Positions 1 through 46,007 of a stretch of 64,000 nt of DNA are shown here, piece after piece; within the stretch, counting starts at the first letter, position 1, and every line of letters begins with the position of its first letter. Position numbers and translations under genes: made by a program. The stretch comes from a virus (Duplodnaviria; Heunggongvirae; Uroviricota; Caudoviricetes). The DNA is taken from IMG/VR virus record IMGVR_UViG_2645727901_000008; one strand, given 5' to 3'. The notes under the pieces are model-generated. The model did not search any database, was not told the origin of the DNA, and saw only the letters and a program-made list of their open reading frames with translations.

Positions 1-321
1 TTCTATCTCCGGTTCCGCGCTCGCGTAATCACGGATCTTGTTCCTCAGCCATGCCACATCAGGAAGAGTTAACGTGGTCCCGGCGGGCATTTCTTCCATT
101 TCTGACTCATGGCCCACCAGCACCCGGAATACCCAGCGCAAATCTGCATTGCCATACGCCCTGTAGGCTGCAAGGTCTGAACGATATACTTCATCAATCT
201 TTATCGTGTACTGGAAATTATCAGAGTGATACTCCGATACCCGCTTAATCATTTCCTGGTGAAACAGCGCACGAAAAATATCGTCTTCAATGTACCTATC
301 GTCGAGTCTGCTATAGCCCAT
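1..321 (-). CDS. hypothetical phage protein, N-terminal part only (gene runs off the window start)
   Basis: Minus-strand frame opens with ATG near 321 (MGYSRLDDRYIEDDIFRALFHQEMIK...) and has no stop before position 1; GAGAGG-like RBS upstream. Absent from ORF track because truncated by the window edge. Confidence 0.45.
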   Translation of the reverse strand, partial: MGYSRLDDRYIEDDIFRALFHQEMIKRVSEYHSDNFQYTIKIDEVYRSDLAAYRAYGNADLRWVFRVLVGHESEMEEMPAGTTLTLPDVAWLRNKIRDYASAEPEIE

Positions 322-514
322 AACAAAGCCTCTCAGTCATAACATGGGGGAAACTGTATGCAGGGTGTGAAATGCGAGAAACAGACAGGCCACCAGTTCA
401 GGGGGATGTGGTTCATAAATCCCCTCACTGGTGACAAGTGACTTTCATTAATCTTTATGCGGGGGCCAGCTTCATTTGCTGGCATTAGATTAAAAATTAA
501 ACGGAGTGAATGAC

Positions 515-6503: not shown

Positions 6504-6700
6504 ATTGGCAGCCTCCTTTGACTAAGTTAAGGAGCTACCGCGTGAGGTTCCAATCTCAATGGCGGTAGCACTGACTGGGTTGGAACTACCGGCGTCAAAG
6601 GGAACCGGCCTGCCTTTCGGCAGCCCAGCCAGCACTACCATTGATCTCTGAGCTAAACGCTACGTATGGCTGTGCGATGGCATGACACAAAAAAAGACGC
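6504..6700 (-). ncRNA. candidate c4-like antisense/leader RNA region upstream of icd-like gene (copy 1)
   Basis: Minus-strand RNA contains CCCUUUGAC (about 6594-6602) complementary to GUCAAAGGAGG covering the icd-like SD (about 6512-6522); also a UAGCUCAG tRNA-like stretch. Confidence 0.3.
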
Positions 6701-6754
6701 TTTCGGCGTCTGTGTCGCCTTTGACATTATCCGGGGTTCCAATCCCGGCACCCG

Positions 6755-6777
6755 TTTTTCTAAGGTGCCGTAGAAAT
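6755..6777. promoter_or_regulatory. TTTCTA-N8-TAGAAA palindromic operator-like element upstream of immI-like copy 1
   Basis: cgTTTTTCTAAggtgccgTAGAAATAtacc; a related inverted arrangement sits upstream of copy 2 at about 44770-44800. Confidence 0.35.
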
Positions 6778-6983: not shown

Positions 6984-7302
6984 TTTGACACCCCCAGCGC
7001 GAGTAAAGAATGCAGATTATCGCGTGAGTGGCGGACAACGAGTGATGGGAAAAGACAGTAGCTGTTCATAGTGTAGTGACTCCTTGCTTTCGGAGCCGCC
7101 ATCGACTGTTCCACGGTCTGGTGGCGGCGCAATAAAGGCTGGAACACCGTGAGTCAACGGGGGCTTTTCAGCCACCTATATTGCACCGCCATAGGTATAG
7201 CGGCGGCAATAATACGAAAAACTAAACAGTTTGTCTCAAAAAGTTGACCGGTGTGCCAATCGGTAGTGAATGTACATCGGAGAAATTTACAATTCAACTT
7301 AA

Positions 7303-7320
7303 AATGTTAGAAAACTAATT
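7303..7320 (+). promoter_or_regulatory. operator-like motif copy (AATGTTAGAAAACTAATT)
   Basis: Member of the dispersed TGTTAGAAA(A/T)(C/T)TAATTT family; abuts the stop of 7315..7893. Confidence 0.4.
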
Positions 7321-7893
7321 TATCAATTCAATCGCCATCTGATACAACGTCATTTCATCGGCATTGTGCCGCATGAAATCTGCTTTTCCGCCTATTTTTC
7401 CGTCAGCATGAACAGGGACCAGCCAGGGATATTGTTCTCGGACCTCGGCTGGCGCTGCGTACTGGTGGTGCCATTTACACAAAGGGAGGACATATTTATG
7501 CGCGTTCTCTGCCGTTCTCCCGAAGATATGGTGCAGGGATACTACTGGGCTATGTTGTCCGTGAATATGGCAGGCAATGCAGGGGAGAGTACCGATAGCG
7601 GTCTGTATCCGGCGTTCATCAGCTGTGAGTGATCTGCCCTTCAGGCCGCGTGACGTGCGTGTTTTTTTGGGCGGAGCGGATACAGCTTTATCTTTTCTCC
7701 GCTGTTCATATTGCTTTGCTTTTTCAATTTTCTTTTGCCGATATTCAGGCGATGCGGCTTTTTCTCTCGCTCGCTGCTGCTGGCGTTGAGCTTGTTGAAG
7801 GCGCTTTGCCCTTTGTTCCTCTCGCCAGGCCGGGTCAGCCAATTTTTGCATGGCTTTTTGTCTCTGTTTCTCCCAATAGCTCTGTTTCTGCAT
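7315..7893 (-). CDS. zinc-finger (Cys/His-rich) phage protein with basic coiled N-terminus, HNH/DUF968-C-terminal-like
   Basis: CIACHIHG...SLHHIFGRT...PLCKWHH cluster resembles the C-terminal Cys/His cluster of 11350..12345; flanked on both sides by operator-like motifs in inverted orientation. Confidence 0.65.
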   Translation of the reverse strand: MQKQSYWEKQRQKAMQKLADPAWREEQRAKRLQQAQRQQQRAREKAASPEYRQKKIEKAKQYEQRRKDKAVSAPPKKTRTSRGLKGRSLTADERRIQTAIGTLPCIACHIHGQHSPVVSLHHIFGRTAENAHKYVLPLCKWHHQYAAPAEVREQYPWLVPVHADGKIGGKADFMRHNADEMTLYQMAIELIN

Positions 7894-7952
7894 GATGGCA
7901 GTCTCTTACTTTTCAATGATTTTTCTATGATTGATCAAAACTGTTAGATATT

Positions 7953-7972
7953 CAAAATTGATTTTCTAACAC
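7953..7972 (-). promoter_or_regulatory. operator-like motif copy (TGTGTTAGAAAATCAATT on minus strand) with partner half-site TGTTAGA at about 7942
   Basis: About 65 nt upstream of the 7893 start codon; GTTAGA-N16-TCTAAC inverted arrangement. Confidence 0.4.
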
Positions 7973-8165
7973 AAAACATTAATATCATTCCTGATAACTG
8001 TTTGGAGGACATGATGCTTATAGCTTTAAGTGCGATCCACCAGCCATCTGTGAATGAAATTGGCCTGTTCTATGTGTTGTTTTTCGGGGCGTTGGCGCTA
8101 CTTGAGCTTGGTATTGAGCTTTTCGCAGTGCTTATGTTTTGCGTCACGATTTTGGGGAAATTTTG

Positions 8166-10255: not shown

Positions 10256-10563
10256 ACACAATTAAAGAAATGCCGGTAGAACGTGATGAATATGGCTGCT
10301 GGACACATCCGGAGTATGAGAAGTTTTGCGCAGGTCGTGAATATATTTCCACTGAGGAATTTGACGCCTGGATGAAGGAAAATAATCTTCAGTGGACTAT
10401 TCGCAGTATGGATGAAGATGATTTTGATCTGGACGCAGCTGGTCCCGATATTGCCGCCTGGGAACCGGAGCGACCAGAAGGTGAAGGCTGGTTTGTTGGC
10501 TCTATTCATGACACTGAAGATGGTCCAGTTTGTATCTGGCTGCGGGAGAAGGTTGCCGCATGA
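10252..10563 (+). CDS. hypothetical acidic protein
   Basis: 103 aa; stop overlaps the phosphatase start (ATGA). Confidence 0.5.
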
Positions 10564-11252: not shown

Positions 11253-11292
11253 TCAAATCATTTACGCACTCAAAATGCGTTAGAACATTGAT

Positions 11293-11312
11293 TTTAGTTT
11301 TCTAACATATTA
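11293..11312 (-). promoter_or_regulatory. operator-like motif copy (ATGTTAGAAAACTAAAAT on minus strand) with GTTAGAA partner at about 11279
   Basis: Intergenic, between the phosphatase and DUF968-like genes; GTTAGAA-N14-TTCTAAC inverted repeat. Confidence 0.4.
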
Positions 11313-11349
11313 TTTTACCACTCGGAACAAAACAGAGTCGGTATGCATT

Positions 11350-22167: not shown

Positions 22168-22221
22168 AGCACCCTCCGAAATAGGCGAGGGTACTTTACA
22201 GCAAAGATAACAATCTAAAAA

Positions 22222-22241
22222 GATGTGTTAGAAATTTAATT
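22222..22241 (+). promoter_or_regulatory. operator-like motif copy (TGTGTTAGAAATTTAATTTA)
   Basis: Near-identical to the copy at 45988-46007; between the dut operon start and the recombinase stop. Confidence 0.4.
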
Positions 22242-23269
22242 TATGAATCCATCAGGCGGCTATTAGCCCCCACAGACACGCCGCCACGGCGCAGATACCG
22301 CATAAGTGTTTCCGGTTTCTTCCAGGTTCCTTCCTGCATGATCTCCACCATAGACACCTGCTTTTCAGCCATATCGATAGCGGCCCCGACACGAGCACTA
22401 TGCCCGGTCCACGTCCGGTATCTCCCTTTGTTTGGCGTGGCATCTCTTTTATTCAGCAACACCCAGGCGTCGCTGAATATTTTCTCCATTGCAGGTGCAG
22501 TAAGGGGAGTTGTCGTAATCCTGGCCTTATTGCTACGGTGTATCGGCGGGAACAGCACCGCGTCAGGATGTTCACGAAGCCCGGAAACATCCAGCCAGTC
22601 ATTCAGCACTGCGGTAGTGCGACGGGAAAGCACCTTATCAAGCCCGGCGGCGGTCGTTATTGTCTTCGTGTGTGAAATATGTAGCGTGACAGTGTCACCT
22701 GTTTGGTCCAGATCTCCTACACGAATACGCGAGATTTCAGACATTCGCATCAGCGTATTGTATGCAACGAAGAGGAAAGCCCGGTTACGCAGGTCCACCA
22801 GCCGTTCTGACCTGGACAACAGGACGTCGAGCAGTTTCAGATCGTCCCACCGCAGCGGTATAGCCTGGCCTGTTCGTTCGCCTTTTTCCGTTGCCGCTTC
22901 GCGCCGGATGCGCCGCATAGCCAGAGAAACACTTTTATCATCCGAAAGTGGCGGAAGGCCACAATGCGAAAGCAGCATGTTAAGCATGGCGTAGTGCTTA
23001 TCAATGGTGGTCGAAGCCAGATCAGCATCATGCAGCTGAAGAAAATACTCGCGGGCCATCTCTGGTGAGATCGGGAACCAAGCGAGCTGGCGAGCGTGGC
23101 ACCATCGCGCCCAGGAGTGAAACACTAACCGGAGATCGCGCAAAGTATTCGGCGCGTAAGCCCCCTGGTCATTCATGAACCGCATAAAGTTTTCTGCGGC
23201 CTCCTGGTACTCTTTGCCAATGTTGCGCAGAAAACCACCGGAGCTGCCAGAGATAATTAATTCACTCAT
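22241..23269 (-). CDS. dre: Cre-family tyrosine recombinase (Dre-like)
   Basis: 342 aa; C-terminal catalytic region RYRTWTGHSARVGAAIDMAEKQVSMVEIMQEGTWKKPETLMRYLRR aligns with Cre (...WSGHSARVGAARDMARAGVSIPEIMQAGGWTNVNIVMNYIR); a rox-type 14-4-14 site lies about 150 bp upstream. Confidence 0.85.
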   Translation of the reverse strand: MSELIISGSSGGFLRNIGKEYQEAAENFMRFMNDQGAYAPNTLRDLRLVFHSWARWCHARQLAWFPISPEMAREYFLQLHDADLASTTIDKHYAMLNMLLSHCGLPPLSDDKSVSLAMRRIRREAATEKGERTGQAIPLRWDDLKLLDVLLSRSERLVDLRNRAFLFVAYNTLMRMSEISRIRVGDLDQTGDTVTLHISHTKTITTAAGLDKVLSRRTTAVLNDWLDVSGLREHPDAVLFPPIHRSNKARITTTPLTAPAMEKIFSDAWVLLNKRDATPNKGRYRTWTGHSARVGAAIDMAEKQVSMVEIMQEGTWKKPETLMRYLRRGGVSVGANSRLMDS

Positions 23270-23420
23270 GAAACTATTTAACCTCTATATACAGATGACG
23301 CTACGCAAAAATATAAAAATGACAGGGTAGCTATAAGTTAATTTTCAAAATTCAAGCCTTTGATTCGAGGCACGTATTTTTAGTGATGTCAACACTGATC
23401 ATCTACCCATGATTATAGTC

Positions 23421-23452
23421 TAACTTTAAATAATGCCAATTATCTAAAGTTA
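23421..23452. other. lox/rox-type recombination site (14-bp inverted arms, 4-bp spacer)
   Basis: TAACTTTAAATAAT-GCCA-ATTATCTAAAGTTA; arms are inverted repeats with one mismatch; differs by one base from the rox site as I recall it. Confidence 0.8.
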
Positions 23453-23625
23453 GAAACTTAGGAATTTTTTTCCTTTCCCCGTAGATGGGCAATGCATTGC
23501 TGGCGTGGGCTTTAAGTTATGCCTGGCAGTTTTTAAGCAGAATTTTCTAAATTGGATGACAAAAAAATGCATCTTGATCCTTTACTCACCCTGTTATTCG
23601 GCATAGATTTGTCATAGTAATTTTA

Positions 23626-23645
23626 TGTTAGAAAACTAAATCGAG
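23626..23645 (+). promoter_or_regulatory. operator-like motif copy (TATGTTAGAAAACTAAATCG)
   Basis: About 12 nt upstream of the 23654 start codon. Confidence 0.4.
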
Positions 23646-23653
23646 TAGGAATA

Positions 23654-24691
23654 ATGAGTAAGAAGTCGATCGAGAAAGAGTACAAACGGTTCCTGCAAAC
23701 CGCTGAACGGTGGAAAGAGCTGGTGGTCGCAAACTCTGTTTTCCATGATACCAGTTATGCCGGCGAGGAATTCCGCCACGTTGCACTAACACATGATCAG
23801 AATGTACTAGAAGAAGCTGAAAAGTGCCTCACAGAATGGAAAGCCTTTGTTGACTTGTGCCGTAACGCTGACGGCAAAGCGTCCAACATTGTTGAGTCTG
23901 TATATTCTCCGATCCCATTCATTATTGAGGACACAAATCAAAGCACGCATATTGTTGTGCAAAGCGCGACCACCACCCGCTCATTTACGCGCGAAAATCT
24001 GCTCAAAAAATATGATGCAATTATAAAGAAAAGCCTGAAAAACAAGATATTTTCGCAGATTGTTGGTGCACTTGAAGAAGAGCGCCGTTTTTTCGCATCA
24101 GAACCTGAAGGGGAAGTTTACCGGGCGCGCAAAGATGGATACACAGATGTAGTGCTTACAACAAACATTGAAGGCAGCAATGCTCTGTCACGATTCAGGG
24201 TAGGCGCACACGGAGCCTTAGTGTTCGCAAAACTTCCGAACACCACAGTGCCCGTTGTTAATAATGTCGGCGAACGTCGCAGCATTACTATTTATTCTGG
24301 GGTTGAGTCGATACCTTGCGGCCTGCTTGGTGACTTTAGCCTCTATCGCGTTCGCGATCTGGAGAAACACCAACCAAGCTATGTTGCGAAGTCATATATC
24401 TTGCGAAACATCGACATCCGCAATGAGAGCTTAAAGAACAAATCAGCCAAAATGCTTGAGGAAGCCGATCCGGCTATTCGCCATATCATTGAGCGTAAAA
24501 TACAGACAGCACGCGAAGCGATGGCGAGACTGAATAAAATGGATCTGGAGTTGTTAGACGTAATGATGACATCCGGAGATGACCTGACAGGCATAAAACT
24601 GACAGACGCGCGGAAAAGATACGGTAAAACCATAGAAGAACGTTACGGGTTCACTTTCTCCCAAACACAGCACGCCGCTAAACTCTGGTAA
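23654..24691 (+). CDS. hypothetical protein at the c1-equivalent position between the recombinase and pac genes (candidate regulator)
   Basis: 345-aa ORF divergent from the recombinase; operator-like motif just upstream; no recognisable similarity to P1 C1 by eye. Confidence 0.55.
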   Translation: MSKKSIEKEYKRFLQTAERWKELVVANSVFHDTSYAGEEFRHVALTHDQNVLEEAEKCLTEWKAFVDLCRNADGKASNIVESVYSPIPFIIEDTNQSTHIVVQSATTTRSFTRENLLKKYDAIIKKSLKNKIFSQIVGALEEERRFFASEPEGEVYRARKDGYTDVVLTTNIEGSNALSRFRVGAHGALVFAKLPNTTVPVVNNVGERRSITIYSGVESIPCGLLGDFSLYRVRDLEKHQPSYVAKSYILRNIDIRNESLKNKSAKMLEEADPAIRHIIERKIQTAREAMARLNKMDLELLDVMMTSGDDLTGIKLTDARKRYGKTIEERYGFTFSQTQHAAKLW

Positions 24692-24716
24692 TCACAAGCC
24701 CCGCATTGCCGGGGCT

Positions 24717-26225
24717 TTATATATCCAGATCTGGCATTTCCACATCTGCAAGAACCTGATCGCGGAAGGTAGCCATTTCAGCGCCGATATCTTCATTAGC
24801 AGGAACATAGTCCACCAGCATTGTAAAGCAGTAGGTATCCCATCGGTCAGGTGATTTGATGTTCAGCTTTTGCCGCATGTGCTCCTTGCGCATCATCGCC
24901 ATCTTCCCTTCTTCATTAAGTAAAAAGGGGATTTTTGACGCTTGCTCTGCCGTTTTAGGGTCACTGTCTATTCGCATACGACCTGACTTTATGGCATCAC
25001 GAGCCATAATATTTGCGTAGGCACGTTGGTTAACAAAACGCTCCTTGTCTTTGTTCGAAAACATGGGTTTCCCCCACCGAATACGTACCGGATTAGCCCC
25101 ACGGCGCACCAGCTGCGCACAGGTATCTGAACCAAAACCGTCTGCGTCAACCGCGATTGTAATATTCGGGTATTTATCCGGCGTGCATTCGTTGTATATA
25201 AAGTCAGCAAAAGCCAGCGGGTCCATAGTCCCTGGCATTTCCATTATCTTAAAGTTAACAACGCGCCGCTTATTCCTGTGACCTGACACCTTGCAGATGT
25301 TAAGGACCGACTTGTCTCGCCCGTTCCCAACGTCAGCTGTCGCTACCCACCCCCAATTTTTCTCCAACAACACCTTGCGCCGCGCAGCGCGATCGCATTC
25401 ATCACGACCAAGCAAATAGCCGTTAATCTCCCGAGGGAACTGACCAAGCACCTTAACCATATACTCAATAGAATCGCGCCCGCCATATTCCAGGAGTTTC
25501 TGCCTGATGAATTGTGGTGTGACGAACGGTGATTCTTCTGAGTTAAGAACAATTGCTGTCCAGATCCCTTTCGGGTTGTCTGGGGTTTTAGCTTGAGAAT
25601 GGTGCGAATCGTAGAAATAACCACTTGGCCTTGTTGGCTGGGATAGCATCAACATTCGGTTATCTTCTTCAGTAAGAGCACCGGTCATTACGCCGATCGC
25701 CTTATCAGATATACCAGATGCTTCATCCAGAATTAGAAGCAAATGTGCCGCGTGTTCCCCCGCCAGCGCTTCTTCGTTGCCGAGTCGATAACCTTTGCAG
25801 AGAACTTCCCAAATCCCCTTACGGGAGCGCTCATAAAACATGGTGTCAGAGAGGACAAAATAGGTCTGCAACCACCCATGACGCTTAACTGCATTCGCCC
25901 AATACTGTTTAACGTATTTGAATACGCCTGTTTTTACCTGGCCTATCTTGTTAGCAACAATGATGACACGGGCATCGGGGAACAGGATCATAAAAATCAA
26001 CAGCAACATCGCGGTAAGGGACGACTTCCCCGTTCCGTGTCCGGACGTGACGGTAGTCCTACTCCCCGTTTCCTGCACTGACTGAATGATCTGCTGCTGC
26101 TGGTGGGAGGGGAACATCCCAAAAATATCGACAACAGCCTGGGTAAAGTTGTAGCGGTATTTGATTACCATATCGCGCCAGCGTGGATCGCTGGTGACGC
26201 ATTTAATCTTGCGCCCGCCAGCCAT
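24717..26225 (-). CDS. pacB: terminase large subunit (PacB-like)
   Basis: 502 aa; Walker A-like SGHGTGKSS; LILDEAS Walker B-like; position and size match P1 pacB. Confidence 0.75.
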   Translation of the reverse strand: MAGGRKIKCVTSDPRWRDMVIKYRYNFTQAVVDIFGMFPSHQQQQIIQSVQETGSRTTVTSGHGTGKSSLTAMLLLIFMILFPDARVIIVANKIGQVKTGVFKYVKQYWANAVKRHGWLQTYFVLSDTMFYERSRKGIWEVLCKGYRLGNEEALAGEHAAHLLLILDEASGISDKAIGVMTGALTEEDNRMLMLSQPTRPSGYFYDSHHSQAKTPDNPKGIWTAIVLNSEESPFVTPQFIRQKLLEYGGRDSIEYMVKVLGQFPREINGYLLGRDECDRAARRKVLLEKNWGWVATADVGNGRDKSVLNICKVSGHRNKRRVVNFKIMEMPGTMDPLAFADFIYNECTPDKYPNITIAVDADGFGSDTCAQLVRRGANPVRIRWGKPMFSNKDKERFVNQRAYANIMARDAIKSGRMRIDSDPKTAEQASKIPFLLNEEGKMAMMRKEHMRQKLNIKSPDRWDTYCFTMLVDYVPANEDIGAEMATFRDQVLADVEMPDLDI

Positions 26226-27589
26226 TAATCATCCTCCGGCGGTTCTATCGCGATATCATCATCTCCGGCGTCATACCCTGCATCAGATACATCATAATCA
26301 CCGTAAATTTCAGCCGTTGCCGAAGGGTCAATATCCAGCTCTTCGTCGTTGGCCTCGAATTCTCCAGCTTTACGCTCGCCATTGCGGTCGTAATCTCCGC
26401 ACCCCAATTCTTCAACAATGGTTGCCACATCCGCCCGGCGCTCTGCCAGCCATTGCGGATGGTTAGCCTGAAGCGTTGCAAACTCCCTTGCCTCTTTGTC
26501 CAGCTGTTCATCATCAACATCATTGACGTCAGAAACAGGTGGTTCGAGAAGAGTGATAGCTTTCGCCGCGCGCGCCGCGAGGATAGCCGGGACGCTGACC
26601 CCCTGGCGCTCGATGTATTCAGCAACACCGATATCATCCAGTTCCTCGCGCTCACGCATACGTATAGCGGCGGCGATAACTCTGGCTGCGCGTGCGTCAG
26701 CGCCAATGCGATATTCAATCTCTTTGCCACGCTGTTCGGCCTGTAGGCGTGCTAATTCGAGTTTTTCTCTGGCCTCAGCCTCTTTGAATGCTTGCTGGCG
26801 AGCGCTCTGACGAAGCTTTTCATCCCCCTGTCGCAGCTTTTGTTCGGACTGATATATAGCTGCCAACCTACTGATAAAATCATTCATGTAGTAGGCCGCG
26901 TCACTGATTAGACCGAGAAGACGCTGCCCAGGGTGCATTCCTTCTGGCTCTTTATCGCCCAAGGCGTCTATTTCCGCCTGTAGGCGTTCGGCCTCCTGAT
27001 CAACAATGCTTTGATACTGAAGTGCGCGCTCTTGCGCCATTTGAATTGCTAACCGCAGGTGTTCTTCTGCGCCGTTCTTCATCATATCGCGAGCCACATT
27101 CGTAGTGGGCAATGTGGCACGCTGCACAGCACCGTCAGGGATCATTGCAGAAGATCCCTCAATTTTTGGGGCGCTTTTATCTTCTTCGGGGATCATTTTC
27201 GCCATTTTTTCGCGCAATGATCTCCTGACAGATTCTTTTATCTCATTGTTATTATTTGCATTATTTTCATGATCCGAAGTTTTCTTTCTCGGCATACTTC
27301 GGAAAGAACCTGCGCCCTGCGAATTGTCAATTTCTGTAAATTTTGTTTTTTCTGCACCCTCTTCCAGCTTTTTTGTTGCTCTTCCCGCCCGTTTTTTTTC
27401 AGGTGATTTGGTGCTTTTTTTTGTTGTCTTTACCTGCGACCGCACCTCATTTTTTTTCATATTGAGATGCTTTCTGGCTGTATTGAAGCTAAGGCCATGC
27501 TCCTCACAGTATTCCTTTACAGTGATCCCTTTTTCTTCACGCAACGCTATAAAGCGGGCGCGGTGCTCCTCCCAATTAACCAGACTCAT
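26225..27589 (-). CDS. pacA: terminase small subunit (PacA-like) containing a candidate pac site
   Basis: 454 aa, highly charged; translationally coupled to the large subunit; cluster of 4 GATC within about 27140-27273. Confidence 0.65.
   Translation of the reverse strand: MSLVNWEEHRARFIALREEKGITVKEYCEEHGLSFNTARKHLNMKKNEVRSQVKTTKKSTKSPEKKRAGRATKKLEEGAEKTKFTEIDNSQGAGSFRSMPRKKTSDHENNANNNNEIKESVRRSLREKMAKMIPEEDKSAPKIEGSSAMIPDGAVQRATLPTTNVARDMMKNGAEEHLRLAIQMAQERALQYQSIVDQEAERLQAEIDALGDKEPEGMHPGQRLLGLISDAAYYMNDFISRLAAIYQSEQKLRQGDEKLRQSARQQAFKEAEAREKLELARLQAEQRGKEIEYRIGADARAARVIAAAIRMREREELDDIGVAEYIERQGVSVPAILAARAAKAITLLEPPVSDVNDVDDEQLDKEAREFATLQANHPQWLAERRADVATIVEELGCGDYDRNGERKAGEFEANDEELDIDPSATAEIYGDYDVSDAGYDAGDDDIAIEPPEDD
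27140..27273. other. candidate pac (packaging) site: GATC cluster inside the pacA-like gene
   Basis: Four GATC sites in about 130 bp (GGATCAT, AGATCC, GGATCAT, TGATCC). Confidence 0.3.
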
Positions 27590-27978: not shown

Positions 27979-28055
27979 TAATCCCCCGGGCAGGAAATGA
28001 CCGAGGGGATGATAATGAGAATGTTAAAACTGTATAGACTGGTAAAAAGATGATT

Positions 28056-28075
28056 ATATTAGAAAATTAATATTA
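28056..28075 (+). promoter_or_regulatory. weak operator-like motif copy (ATTAGAAAATTAATATTAAA)
   Basis: Partial match to the dispersed motif, upstream of the pac operon. Confidence 0.25.
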
Positions 28076-28086
28076 AATACCTAACG

Positions 28087-28479
28087 CTACCAGCGAGACA
28101 AACGAACAACATGTTTCACTTTTGCGATCCACTTTCCGCGATAACTATTGATTACGGCCTGTGCCAGCTTCAAATTGGCTTCAAAATCAGCCTTACTACC
28201 ATCAGACTCCACCAGCATTCCTCCATCTATTTCTGGTAAACATAGATAATCCTGCTCAACCTGCAGCGGCATTGATGGCTCTCTGAATGGCGTTACTTGC
28301 TCTGCTTTCCAGCGAAATCTAACCCTCATCCCCCTGGTGGTCATTACTAGATAGCCTGTTATAGTGCTTTTATGGCCCACATCAGTACGCGTGGCATTGC
28401 ATGACACGATCTTACAGTTAGCGATAGACCACTCCATATTGGTGGCCTGTTGAGTGCTTAATTTGGTAGTCCCGTACAT
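28087..28479 (-). CDS. hypothetical protein
   Basis: 130 aa; coupled to the upstream gene. Confidence 0.5.
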   Translation of the reverse strand: MYGTTKLSTQQATNMEWSIANCKIVSCNATRTDVGHKSTITGYLVMTTRGMRVRFRWKAEQVTPFREPSMPLQVEQDYLCLPEIDGGMLVESDGSKADFEANLKLAQAVINSYRGKWIAKVKHVVRLSRW

Positions 28480-31360: not shown

Positions 31361-32429
31361 ACTTGCCGGGTACGTCTCCGGCGAGGGCTTCCACCTCCGT
31401 ATGCTTTTCGGCGCACCGCGCCCTGGCTGCAATTCAGTAACAGGGGATGCATAACCCTGGCTTCCAGCGTGATTAGCGCCTTCAGCATGACGGGATATAC
31501 CCGTAACCAACAAACTTTCCCATATACCATCAAACAATGGCTGTTACGCGGGAGGGACGTAACAGGTAAGGGCGCTGACCAGAAAGACCTGACCCTTCTC
31601 ATTCATCTGGTTAATCACACCAGCGCCCTTGCCTGTTATGTCTCCCCGTTCCCTAATACACAGACGGGGACACTCTGCGGTCGATTTTTTGACGGGGGAC
31701 GACTCATACCCCGTGGCGTCTGGCTTCTTAGGCCGCTACCATCATCAGATCATCGTTTGCATTTACTTTAATGGTCGGTTTCTAAACCGCCGCAAAGCCG
31801 CTAACCATGACGAAAACCCTAAAAAAGCCCACCCGAAGATGGGCAAATACGCTACATCTCACACAAGAAAGAAGCCGACTGCCTGAGCTGGATTCACTTT
31901 CAAATGCCCGCAGAAAGGGAACACAAGTCGGCTTCTTTCTTGATGCGGCACTCTCTCCGCCCGTCACCGTTCTGTCTCGGTTGTCGCGTTTGCCACGCCA
32001 GCCGTAACGAGGTTTAAAGTCTTTGCACGTTTCCATCACTCGACTGCCGTCTGTGGCTGTTCGTTGCAGCGGGGGTGCCTCCCCCTGGGGATATCCCCGG
32101 CCTTACCCCATTCTTTCAAGACACAATGCAAGGCCGCATCCGCATAGGTGCATTACCGCAACATTAAGGAGACTTAGGGCAAAAGGTAATCGCCACAAAA
32201 AAAATCCCTATGCCTCCTTAATGTTGAGGATGTGCATTGATGATGATTCGATGCGGCGAGTCCCGTTACTCTCTGCCGGACCATCATCAATGAACATCTT
32301 AAAAAGACCTTCCGTGGCTCAACATGTCTTGTCGTTTACTCCGTAAAGTGCTCTCTCTGAAACCACTTTACGCACTAAACCTGCTGAACTTTGGCTTGCT
32401 CGGTGCCAAAGCGAGTCCCTGTATGTATG

Positions 32430-32450
32430 TAATTTTCTAACACTTTAATT
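32430..32450 (-). promoter_or_regulatory. operator-like motif copy
   Basis: taattTTCTAACActttaat on the plus strand. Confidence 0.35.
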
Positions 32451-32585
32451 TGTTATTTGCTGGTGGGCGAACAACAACCAATAAGTGACTATCAAGCCCA
32501 GCAAGCGAAATGTGGCAACGCTCCACCAGCAAGGAAAATTCTAAGTTAAGTTACTCTCACAATCAATACGTTCGTTTAGTGAAAT

Positions 32586-32605
32586 TAGATTTCTAACATT
32601 TTATT
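32586..32605 (-). promoter_or_regulatory. operator-like motif copy abutting the stop of 32601..33809
   Basis: agatTTCTAACAttttattt on the plus strand. Confidence 0.35.
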
Positions 32606-33809: not shown

Positions 33810-33835
33810 TGCAGTTCCCATTGTTTTTTGCAAGA

Positions 33836-33855
33836 TTAGTTTTCTAACATATTTT
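33836..33855 (-). promoter_or_regulatory. operator-like motif copy (AAATATGTTAGAAAACTAAT on minus strand)
   Basis: About 30-45 nt upstream of the 33809 start; identical core to the copy at 11293-11312. Confidence 0.4.
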
Positions 33856-34435: not shown

Positions 34436-34879
34436 TTAATCAAGACAAACATATTCCGTGATAGCTTTTATGGCTTCATCGGCACTGCGCGCCTCAAAGC
34501 AGTAATAGCCTGCTTCCGTGAGGCGAGTCATCCAGACGAGCTGTTCGGGAGTCAGACGGTTTCTCCCGTGCTTCATCTCAATGCGCATTCCGTGATACCC
34601 ACCACGAGCAAGGTCAATAGAAAGGTCCGGATAGCCCTTCTTCTGACCTTCTGCCACCATCTTAATGGCTGTCCTTTTGCCTCTCAGGCCGCCGTTCGGT
34701 GTTGAGTGTGTGTGCTCATACACGTATCGCATGTTGCGATACAGCCAATCCAGAACGCGAACCTGTTCGTAATGTTCGTAATTCCGTTTTAATAAGTCAG
34801 GATTTCTTTCTAACTCTCTCAGTGCAGCAGCGTGCGGGGATATTTCAGAATACGCACTATGATGCCTGCGTCTTCGCAT
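34436..34879 (-). CDS. VRR-NUC domain nuclease-like protein (PD-(D/E)xK fold)
   Basis: KKGYPDLSIDLARGGYHGMRIEMKHG carries the PD...E.K motif; operator-like motif directly upstream. Confidence 0.6.
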   Translation of the reverse strand: MRRRRHHSAYSEISPHAAALRELERNPDLLKRNYEHYEQVRVLDWLYRNMRYVYEHTHSTPNGGLRGKRTAIKMVAEGQKKGYPDLSIDLARGGYHGMRIEMKHGRNRLTPEQLVWMTRLTEAGYYCFEARSADEAIKAITEYVCLD

Positions 34880-34880
34880 C

Positions 34881-34900
34881 AAATTTCTAACACAAACTTA
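34881..34900 (-). promoter_or_regulatory. operator-like motif copy (TGTGTTAGAAATTT on minus strand)
   Basis: aaaTTTCTAACACAaactta on the plus strand; immediately 5' of the VRR-NUC start. Confidence 0.35.
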
Positions 34901-44439: not shown

Positions 44440-44570
44440 AGTTACGGCCTCACTAACAGGTTTAACAACCTGCTACCCGCTGCTAAACAGGTGGCAGGAC
44501 GTGACGGGGTTAGCAGACTGGCGTTAGTGAAACCAGCAGGCCGAAGCCTCCCCATCACGCCCCACCATAA
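44440..44570 (-). ncRNA. candidate c4-like antisense/leader RNA region (copy 2)
   Basis: Minus-strand RNA has UUCACUAAC (about 44523-44531) complementary to GUUAGUGAGG spanning the icd-like SD (about 44448-44457), and CUGCUAACC pairing with GUUUAGCAG. Confidence 0.3.
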
Positions 44571-44785
44571 TTTGGGCGTAACGCGGTTTTACGGACACAA
44601 AAATACCGCAATATCGGATATCTGCGGTTGTCCGCACTAACATTCAGGCTGCTAAACCCGGTCGCAGAATTTGCTACGACGACATGAATATAAGCCTGAA
44701 AACATGGAAGATCAACTAAAAATTTCAGCAATAGATGACTTCAGTCGATGATGCAGATCATACATTCCGATTTAGAAACGGCAAA

Positions 44786-44805
44786 TTAATTTTCTAACAC
44801 AAAAT
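44786..44805 (-). promoter_or_regulatory. operator-like motif copy with inverted partner (TTAGAAA-N12-TTTCTAA)
   Basis: atTTAGAAAcggcaaattaaTTTTCTAACACaaaatg. Confidence 0.4.
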
Positions 44806-45912: not shown

Positions 45913-45987
45913 GCAGTCGCTACCGGAGCAGTGACCGCGATCCTACTCAATCACATCGGACAGGATCAACAGTGTATATAAATACAC

Positions 45988-46007
45988 TATGTTAGAAATT
46001 TAATTTC
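45988..46007 (+). promoter_or_regulatory. operator-like motif copy (TATGTTAGAAATTTAATTTC) next to palindrome AGTGTATATAAATACACT
   Basis: Near-identical to the copy at 22222-22241. Confidence 0.4.

Follow-up and report, generated by a model that had tools for sequence, protein, structure and literature searches.

Surveying a 64-kb stretch of viral DNA (hereafter, the window), we found an intact 345-aa open reading frame (ORF) lying between a Cre/Dre-like tyrosine recombinase gene and the pac genes (Table 1). A preliminary description of this region had placed the gene there and had taken the position to be that of c1 in P1-like elements, which agrees with the annotated P1 ImmC layout of pacA-pacB-c1-lox-cre. 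The order and directions recombinase (-), c1 (+), pacB (-), pacA (-), and lpa (-) persist where the C1 proteins of relatives are only 45-52% identical, and the ImmC position of c1, convergent with pacB and next to a lox-type site and a Cre-type recombinase gene, is kept at the related loci L006, L007, L008, and L010. Between the convergent c1 and pacB stop codons, a hairpin (AAGCCCCG-CATTGC-CGGGGCTT) is a probable bidirectional terminator, which the terminator scanner passed over because its T-run reads TATATAT.

Judged by nucleotide similarity, the window is a phage-plasmid that is D6-like and related to P1: it is 91% identical to phage D6 (91.4% for positions 22200-26300 against the D6 immC record) and up to 98.8% identical to Salmonella and E. 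coli plasmids, with the phage lineage of D6-type specificity represented by at least 146 plasmid records. The 345-aa protein is equal in length to D6 C1 and 89.9% identical to it, the 35 amino-acid differences being mostly conservative substitutions, and dN/dS between the two genes is 0.06; the ORF is under strong purifying selection, and the gene is real and intact. In D6 the gene, named ‘c1’, has carried a repressor annotation since 2004 (records AY753669, AAV84948.1; MF356679, ASR76322.1), NCBI names homologues up to 96% identical ‘phage repressor protein’, and PHROGs matched only an unnamed family (phrog_1678). By this comparison the gene is of the already known and annotated C1 master repressor type of the phage D6 lineage and, annotation-wise, an ordinary one: the c1 of a common D6-like plasmid prophage in E. 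coli, Salmonella, and Shigella.

Table 1. Features of the c1 locus and candidate C1 operators across the window, by position within each group.
Feature	Position	Strand	Evidence and remarks
Cre/Dre-like tyrosine recombinase	22241-23269	-	Pfam PF00589
rox-type site for Dre-like recombinase	23421-23452	.	31/32 identical to annotated D6 rox; ImmC boundary
Degenerate distal operator partner, AGAATTTTCTAAATT	23539-23553	+	Read from sequence; inverted, 86 bp upstream of proximal site
Inferred c1 promoter	23581-23609	+	-35 TTTACT 23581-23586, 17-bp spacer, -10 TAGATT 23604-23609
Proximal candidate C1 operator	23620-23643	-	Exact TTAGTTTTCTAACAT core 23625-23639; PWM 30.5 bits
c1 ORF, 345 aa	23654-24691	+	Predicted D6-type C1 prophage master repressor; intact
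C1 core, C1/Tus-like	residues ~7-242		Predicted domain
C1 helical C-terminal extension	residues ~246-345		Predicted domain; absent from P1 C1
Hairpin, probable bidirectional terminator	24696-24717	.	Read from sequence
pacB	24717-26225	-	
pacA	26225-27589	-	
Operator heading ImmI-like module 2	7299-7322	-	PWM 31.4 bits
ImmI-like module 2: isrK-like/a1b1, C4 RNA, then icd/antirepressor	6690-6768 (isrK-like/a1b1); 6558-6645 (C4 RNA)		Rfam RF01394, RF01695; D6 annotation
Back-to-back pair in divergent ref/orf88 gap, weak and strong	7936-7959; 7954-7977	-; +	PWM 9.3 and 28.2 bits; D6 ref annotation
Back-to-back pair 5' of pdcB-like gene	11272-11295; 11290-11313	-; +	PWM 19.0 and 32.0 bits; D6 80703/80721
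Operator between recombinase stop codon and 114-aa ORF/dUTPase operon	22220-22243	-	PWM 29.3 bits; D6 89942-89965
lpa operator, strong with weak back-to-back partner	28051-28074; 28069-28092	-; +	PWM 26.8 and 8.3 bits; counterpart of P1 Olpa
Two operators in unannotated gap from tRNA cluster to pmgS	32425-32448; 32581-32604	+; +	PWM 25.1 and 32.9 bits
Operator between pmgR-like and pmgS-like genes	33832-33855	+	PWM 30.6 bits; D6 10314-10337, intergenic
Operator between pmgM-like gene and 86-aa ORF (lxc slot)	34875-34898	+	PWM 23.9 bits; no D6 counterpart
Operator heading ImmI-like module 1	44782-44805	+	PWM 33.9 bits
ImmI-like module 1: a1b1 targets, C4 RNA, then icd/antirepressor	44641-44693 (a1b1); 44487-44572 (C4 RNA)		Rfam RF03163, RF01695; D6 annotation
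Operator 5' of repL-like lytic replication gene	45984-46007	-	PWM 30.1 bits; D6 22461-22484, before repL

Relationship to the C1 repressors of P1 and P7

No obvious similarity to P1 C1 had been seen by eye, a fair impression at 20% identity, but comparison tools recovered a relationship that is significant and collinear. BLASTP aligned P1 C1 with the 345-aa protein over 239 aa at that identity (E 8e-8), and the profile search proposed in the preliminary description, run with hhalign between D6-type and P1-type C1 profiles, gave a probability of 98.4% (E 7.6e-15) across 231 collinear columns. An exhaustive profile search of 1.8 billion proteins reached P1-type C1 (P0027) at E 9e-13, and the Pfam family PF27008 (‘Phage_P7_repressor_C1’) is precomputed on close homologues from both the D6-type and the P1-type clades. 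The NCBIfam model NF041318 (phage_rep_C1) matched residues 7-240 at 23.1 bits (E 4.5e-5), far below its equivalog cut-off of 500 bits, so that function is transferred here across 20% identity; on these alignments the protein is a distant member of the P1/P7 C1 family and not an equivalog. Pairwise and profile methods were needed to see this, as P1 was not among the matches when 50,697 phage records were searched by tblastn at E<=10. A Pfam scan of the protein with a model set that lacks PF27008 returned no family at E<=1, and a single-protein search of PDB sequences gave nothing informative. Neither an HTH nor an S24 domain appeared in that Pfam scan, no HTH repressor appeared among structural matches, and the window holds no C1 homologue besides the 345-aa ORF.

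A dispersed, asymmetric candidate operator motif

The dispersed motif for which this gene had been suggested as repressor is real and non-random: TTAGTTTTCTAACAT was matched 13 times in the window at up to 3 mismatches, against 2.31 expected and with none of 100 shuffles reaching that count, and the core TTTCTAACA was matched 11 times, against 0.59 expected. It is asymmetric and ~20 bp long (aaaTTAGTTTTCTAACAYaaaa), its PWM scores are bimodally distributed, and its ~12 strong copies, accompanied by weaker partners, are all intergenic (12/12). From D6 annotation and Rfam, the genes behind these copies include c1, lpa (the late-promoter activator, recognized by PF25716), repL, ref, and both of the c4-icd-antirepressor modules, in which immunity involves the C4 antisense RNA, and at 11 syntenic positions the D6 counterparts of the operators are identical or near-identical. 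A full-text literature search with the motif string, or with D6 plus operator or heteroimmune, returned nothing relevant, the two primary D6 papers being outside its reach. Experiments have established P1 C1 as a transcriptional repressor, and the dispersed, asymmetric operators of P1 number 22 (PMC8546580). The motif copies are placed in parallel with P1 operators such as Oc1 and Olpa, and the P1 operator has its TCTAA core in common with our motif.

We considered whether the gene might be a C1 homologue while the motif is something else, either an element that early promoters have in common or a place where another factor binds, for example a host protein, Lpa, or a regulator linked to an antirepressor. 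Although the TAACAT/TAACAC end of the motif resembles a -10 hexamer and some predicted promoters take the motif in, it is oriented without regard to which way the flanking genes run, and at c1 it lies 3' of the conserved promoter in the opposite orientation. Scanning the other operators for promoters yielded weak, non-specific matches in AT-rich DNA, and we disregarded promoter predictions at operators with the exception of the phylogenetically conserved c1 promoter. The type of motif also switches with the C1 clade at equal genomic positions (see below), copies precede lpa itself along with early and immunity genes and not late operons, and the shared TCTAA core belongs to a proven C1 operator in P1, all of which makes a non-C1 motif unlikely. 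Homology to P1 C1, conserved synteny, P1-like placement of the motif, and clade-level covariation instead make it highly probable that the ORF product is a C1-family protein and the master repressor of a plasmid prophage resembling phage D6, in line with the candidate role first suggested for it.

Probable control region of c1

The gene had also been described as flanked by operator-like motifs, which is borne out on its 5' side, where one canonical site and a degenerate partner lie upstream, but not on its 3' side: there is no copy 3' of c1, the next strong copies being past the recombinase gene and upstream of lpa (Table 1). Ending 11 bp before the c1 ATG and covering ~+9 to +23 from the inferred transcription start, the proximal operator matches D6 in 24 of 24 letters and keeps its core in the divergent relatives L006, L007, and L008; we infer that it is the site of negative autoregulation of c1. 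The distal partner scores <0 by PWM in the window, at a position that carries a canonical TTTTCTAACA site in the same three relatives, and the natural distal variant TTTTCTAAAT represents a C-to-A change in the core. Bracketed by these two sites is the inferred c1 promoter, which scored too low for the stock scanner's threshold and was found by a separate scan. The window, D6, L006, and L007 share its conserved pattern, TTTACT-17-TA(A/G)ATT, which L008 nearly keeps, within DNA that is otherwise poorly alignable across all of these loci, such that the c1 upstream region keeps a promoter and two inverted operators across divergent loci.

Predicted immunity specificity of the D6-type locus

Searching the 64 kb for the P1 operator ATTGCTCTAATAAATTT gave 0 matches at up to 3 mismatches, whereas the same method detects P1-type sites in P1 and in the P1-type locus L011, and heteroimmunity to P1 is therefore expected. 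In L011, c1 and lpa are preceded by ATTGCTCTAATCAATTT-type sites and TTTCTAACA is absent; at the level of clades, ATTGCTCTAAT-type sites occur at P1-type C1 loci and TTTTCTAACA-type sites at D6-type loci. Covariation is informative solely as this contrast between the two clades: among D6-type loci the core of the operator is unchanged as C1 identity goes from 100% down to 45%, which renders a fine-scale repressor/operator covariation test uninformative there, and for a 30%-identical homologue (P0012), whose contig is 4 kb long, one TTTTTCTAAG-like sequence upstream is all there is, which does not suffice to define an operator.

Read from these sites, the predicted immunity specificity differs from that of P1/P7 and is that of the already sequenced D6 lineage. 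The preliminary description had anticipated a new immunity specificity should the gene be the repressor, an expectation that finds no support, since the gene is the known D6 c1 and D6 has the same operators at syntenic positions. A narrower version, in which the c1 allele of the window has an immunity or antirepressor specificity unlike that of D6 despite 90% identity and so forms a new immunity type, we find very unlikely. The allele is far more diverged from D6 (dS 0.94, with 35 amino-acid differences) than dre, pacB, pacA, and lpa (dS only 0.01-0.25) in a neighborhood otherwise 95-99% identical, the ~90 bp from rox to the distal operator are unrelated to D6, and such divergence fits allele replacement, which is common for immunity genes; yet the operators are identical or nearly so at every syntenic site, their core stays unchanged even where C1 is only 45-52% identical, and the substitutions are mostly conservative at the low dN/dS given above. 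One operator, that in the lxc slot, is extra relative to D6.

A predicted Tus-like fold

The sole unexpected result was a resemblance between predicted C1 models and Tus, the E. coli protein that binds the replication terminus (Ter). With an AF2 model of the 345-aa C1 (pLDDT 86.6), Foldseek searches of D6-type and P1-type C1 models found Tus-DNA structures (PDB 1ECR, 4XR0-4XR2) as the only significant matches (E 1e-6 to 1e-8); for the P1-type model, Tus matched at E 2e-8 to 1e-7 and the next match stood at 0.19, with a global TM between C1 models and Tus of just 0.33-0.44. Two very long beta-strands with family-invariant arginines (R41, R157, R159) are seen in the models. No sequence relationship was detectable, as a 102-sequence C1 profile found no Tus match among PDB sequences and hhalign of C1 against Tus gave a probability of 2%, which leaves C1 outside the Tus family at the sequence level; a search for a solved structure of the P1/P7/D6 C1 family found none.

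As a monomer, Tus contacts an asymmetric ~20-bp site with inter-domain beta-strands, and C1 may also bind as a monomer. Monomer binding through a Tus-like fold would explain the asymmetric operators of the P1 type. We offer as a tentative, somewhat doubtful possibility that the whole P1/P7/D6 C1 family adopts this fold as a monomeric clamp that reads its asymmetric ~20-bp operator via inter-domain beta-strands, with the C-terminal helical domain of the D6 branch replacing an Lxc/Coi layer. That the protein acts on the plasmid prophage in the manner of Tus, as a polar barrier for replication-fork arrest or as a transcription roadblock, and not as a classical master repressor, is extremely unlikely, since for all that Tus-Ter complexes are its only significant structural neighbors and its sites are asymmetric and present in both orientations, its homologue in P1 has been established by experiment to repress transcription and has dispersed operators (PMC8546580), the sites lie at the c1, lpa, repL, and c4-ant promoters with no fork-trap arrangement around an origin, and C1 and Tus have no relation at the sequence level.

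Accessory partners and the C-terminal extension

Seeking the P1 accessory proteins, we obtained no tblastn match in the window for Coi, ImcA, ImcB, or Lxc, and no ORF in the rox-c1 interval exceeds 33 aa on the strand of c1; with these partners not detectable, the circuit differs from that of P1. The lxc slot, after ulx, holds an 86-aa ORF without similarity, and its identification as Lxc is unsupported (BLASTP E 5.3; hhalign 0.2%). Likewise, a fused Lxc or Coi as the source of the C-terminal extension was rejected at the sequence level (hhalign 0.4% and 0.3%, respectively). These ~100 helical residues may serve self-association or looping or, more speculatively, may stand in for the absent Lxc and Coi.

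Proposed mechanism and comparison with known systems

Under the master-repressor reading, a single C1 monomer would occupy each operator by means of a Tus-like cleft, two-domain and alpha+beta, that has long beta-strands, and this binding would shut off Lpa (a lytic regulator), RepL (the lytic replicon), and the antirepressor operons. Such shut-off would maintain the plasmid prophage and confer superinfection immunity against D6-type phages and not against P1/P7. C1 would regulate itself at the operator just 3' of its own promoter, possibly with looping between this proximal operator and its inverted partner 86 bp upstream.

The likeness to P1/P7 C1 spans a homologous ~240-aa core, an ImmC location in which c1 converges on pacB, predicted models that resemble Tus in both cases, and many dispersed asymmetric TCTAA-core operators, some of them paired, before c1, lpa, repL, ref, and c4-icd-ant. 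Beyond low identity and the extra helical C-terminus, the differences lie in the operator itself (TTAGTTTTCTAACAT in the window, ATTGCTCTAATAAATTT in P1/P7), in the arrangement of paired operators (back-to-back in the window, overlapping and face-to-face in P1/P7), and in the lack of a coi-imcBA leader operon and a detectable Lxc. Compared to Tus, the role of C1 would be transcription repression at many phage-plasmid sites and not fork arrest. Lambda CI and LexA-type repressors (HTH plus S24 peptidase) have a similar role in lysogeny maintenance and immunity, whereas the operators in the window are asymmetric and not dyad-symmetric, and neither domain was detected in C1. P1-type induction proceeds via antirepressors (ImmI) and not through RecA-stimulated autocleavage.

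Taken as a whole, the D6-type immunity region is a stripped-down P1 ImmC, without Coi, ImcA/B, or a recognizable Lxc and with a longer C1 and two C4-antirepressor modules, and it offers a simpler system for studying the switch. With the Tus-like prediction, the reading of asymmetric operators by C1 gains a structural hypothesis that is concrete and testable, and this, if true, would link the narrowly distributed enterobacterial Tus to phage-plasmid repressors, possibly through common ancestry or domestication. Immunity groups of P1-like and D6-like phage-plasmids, carriers of resistance genes in clinical isolates, become predictable from sequence with the operator model and regulon map that are now explicit for D6-type C1.

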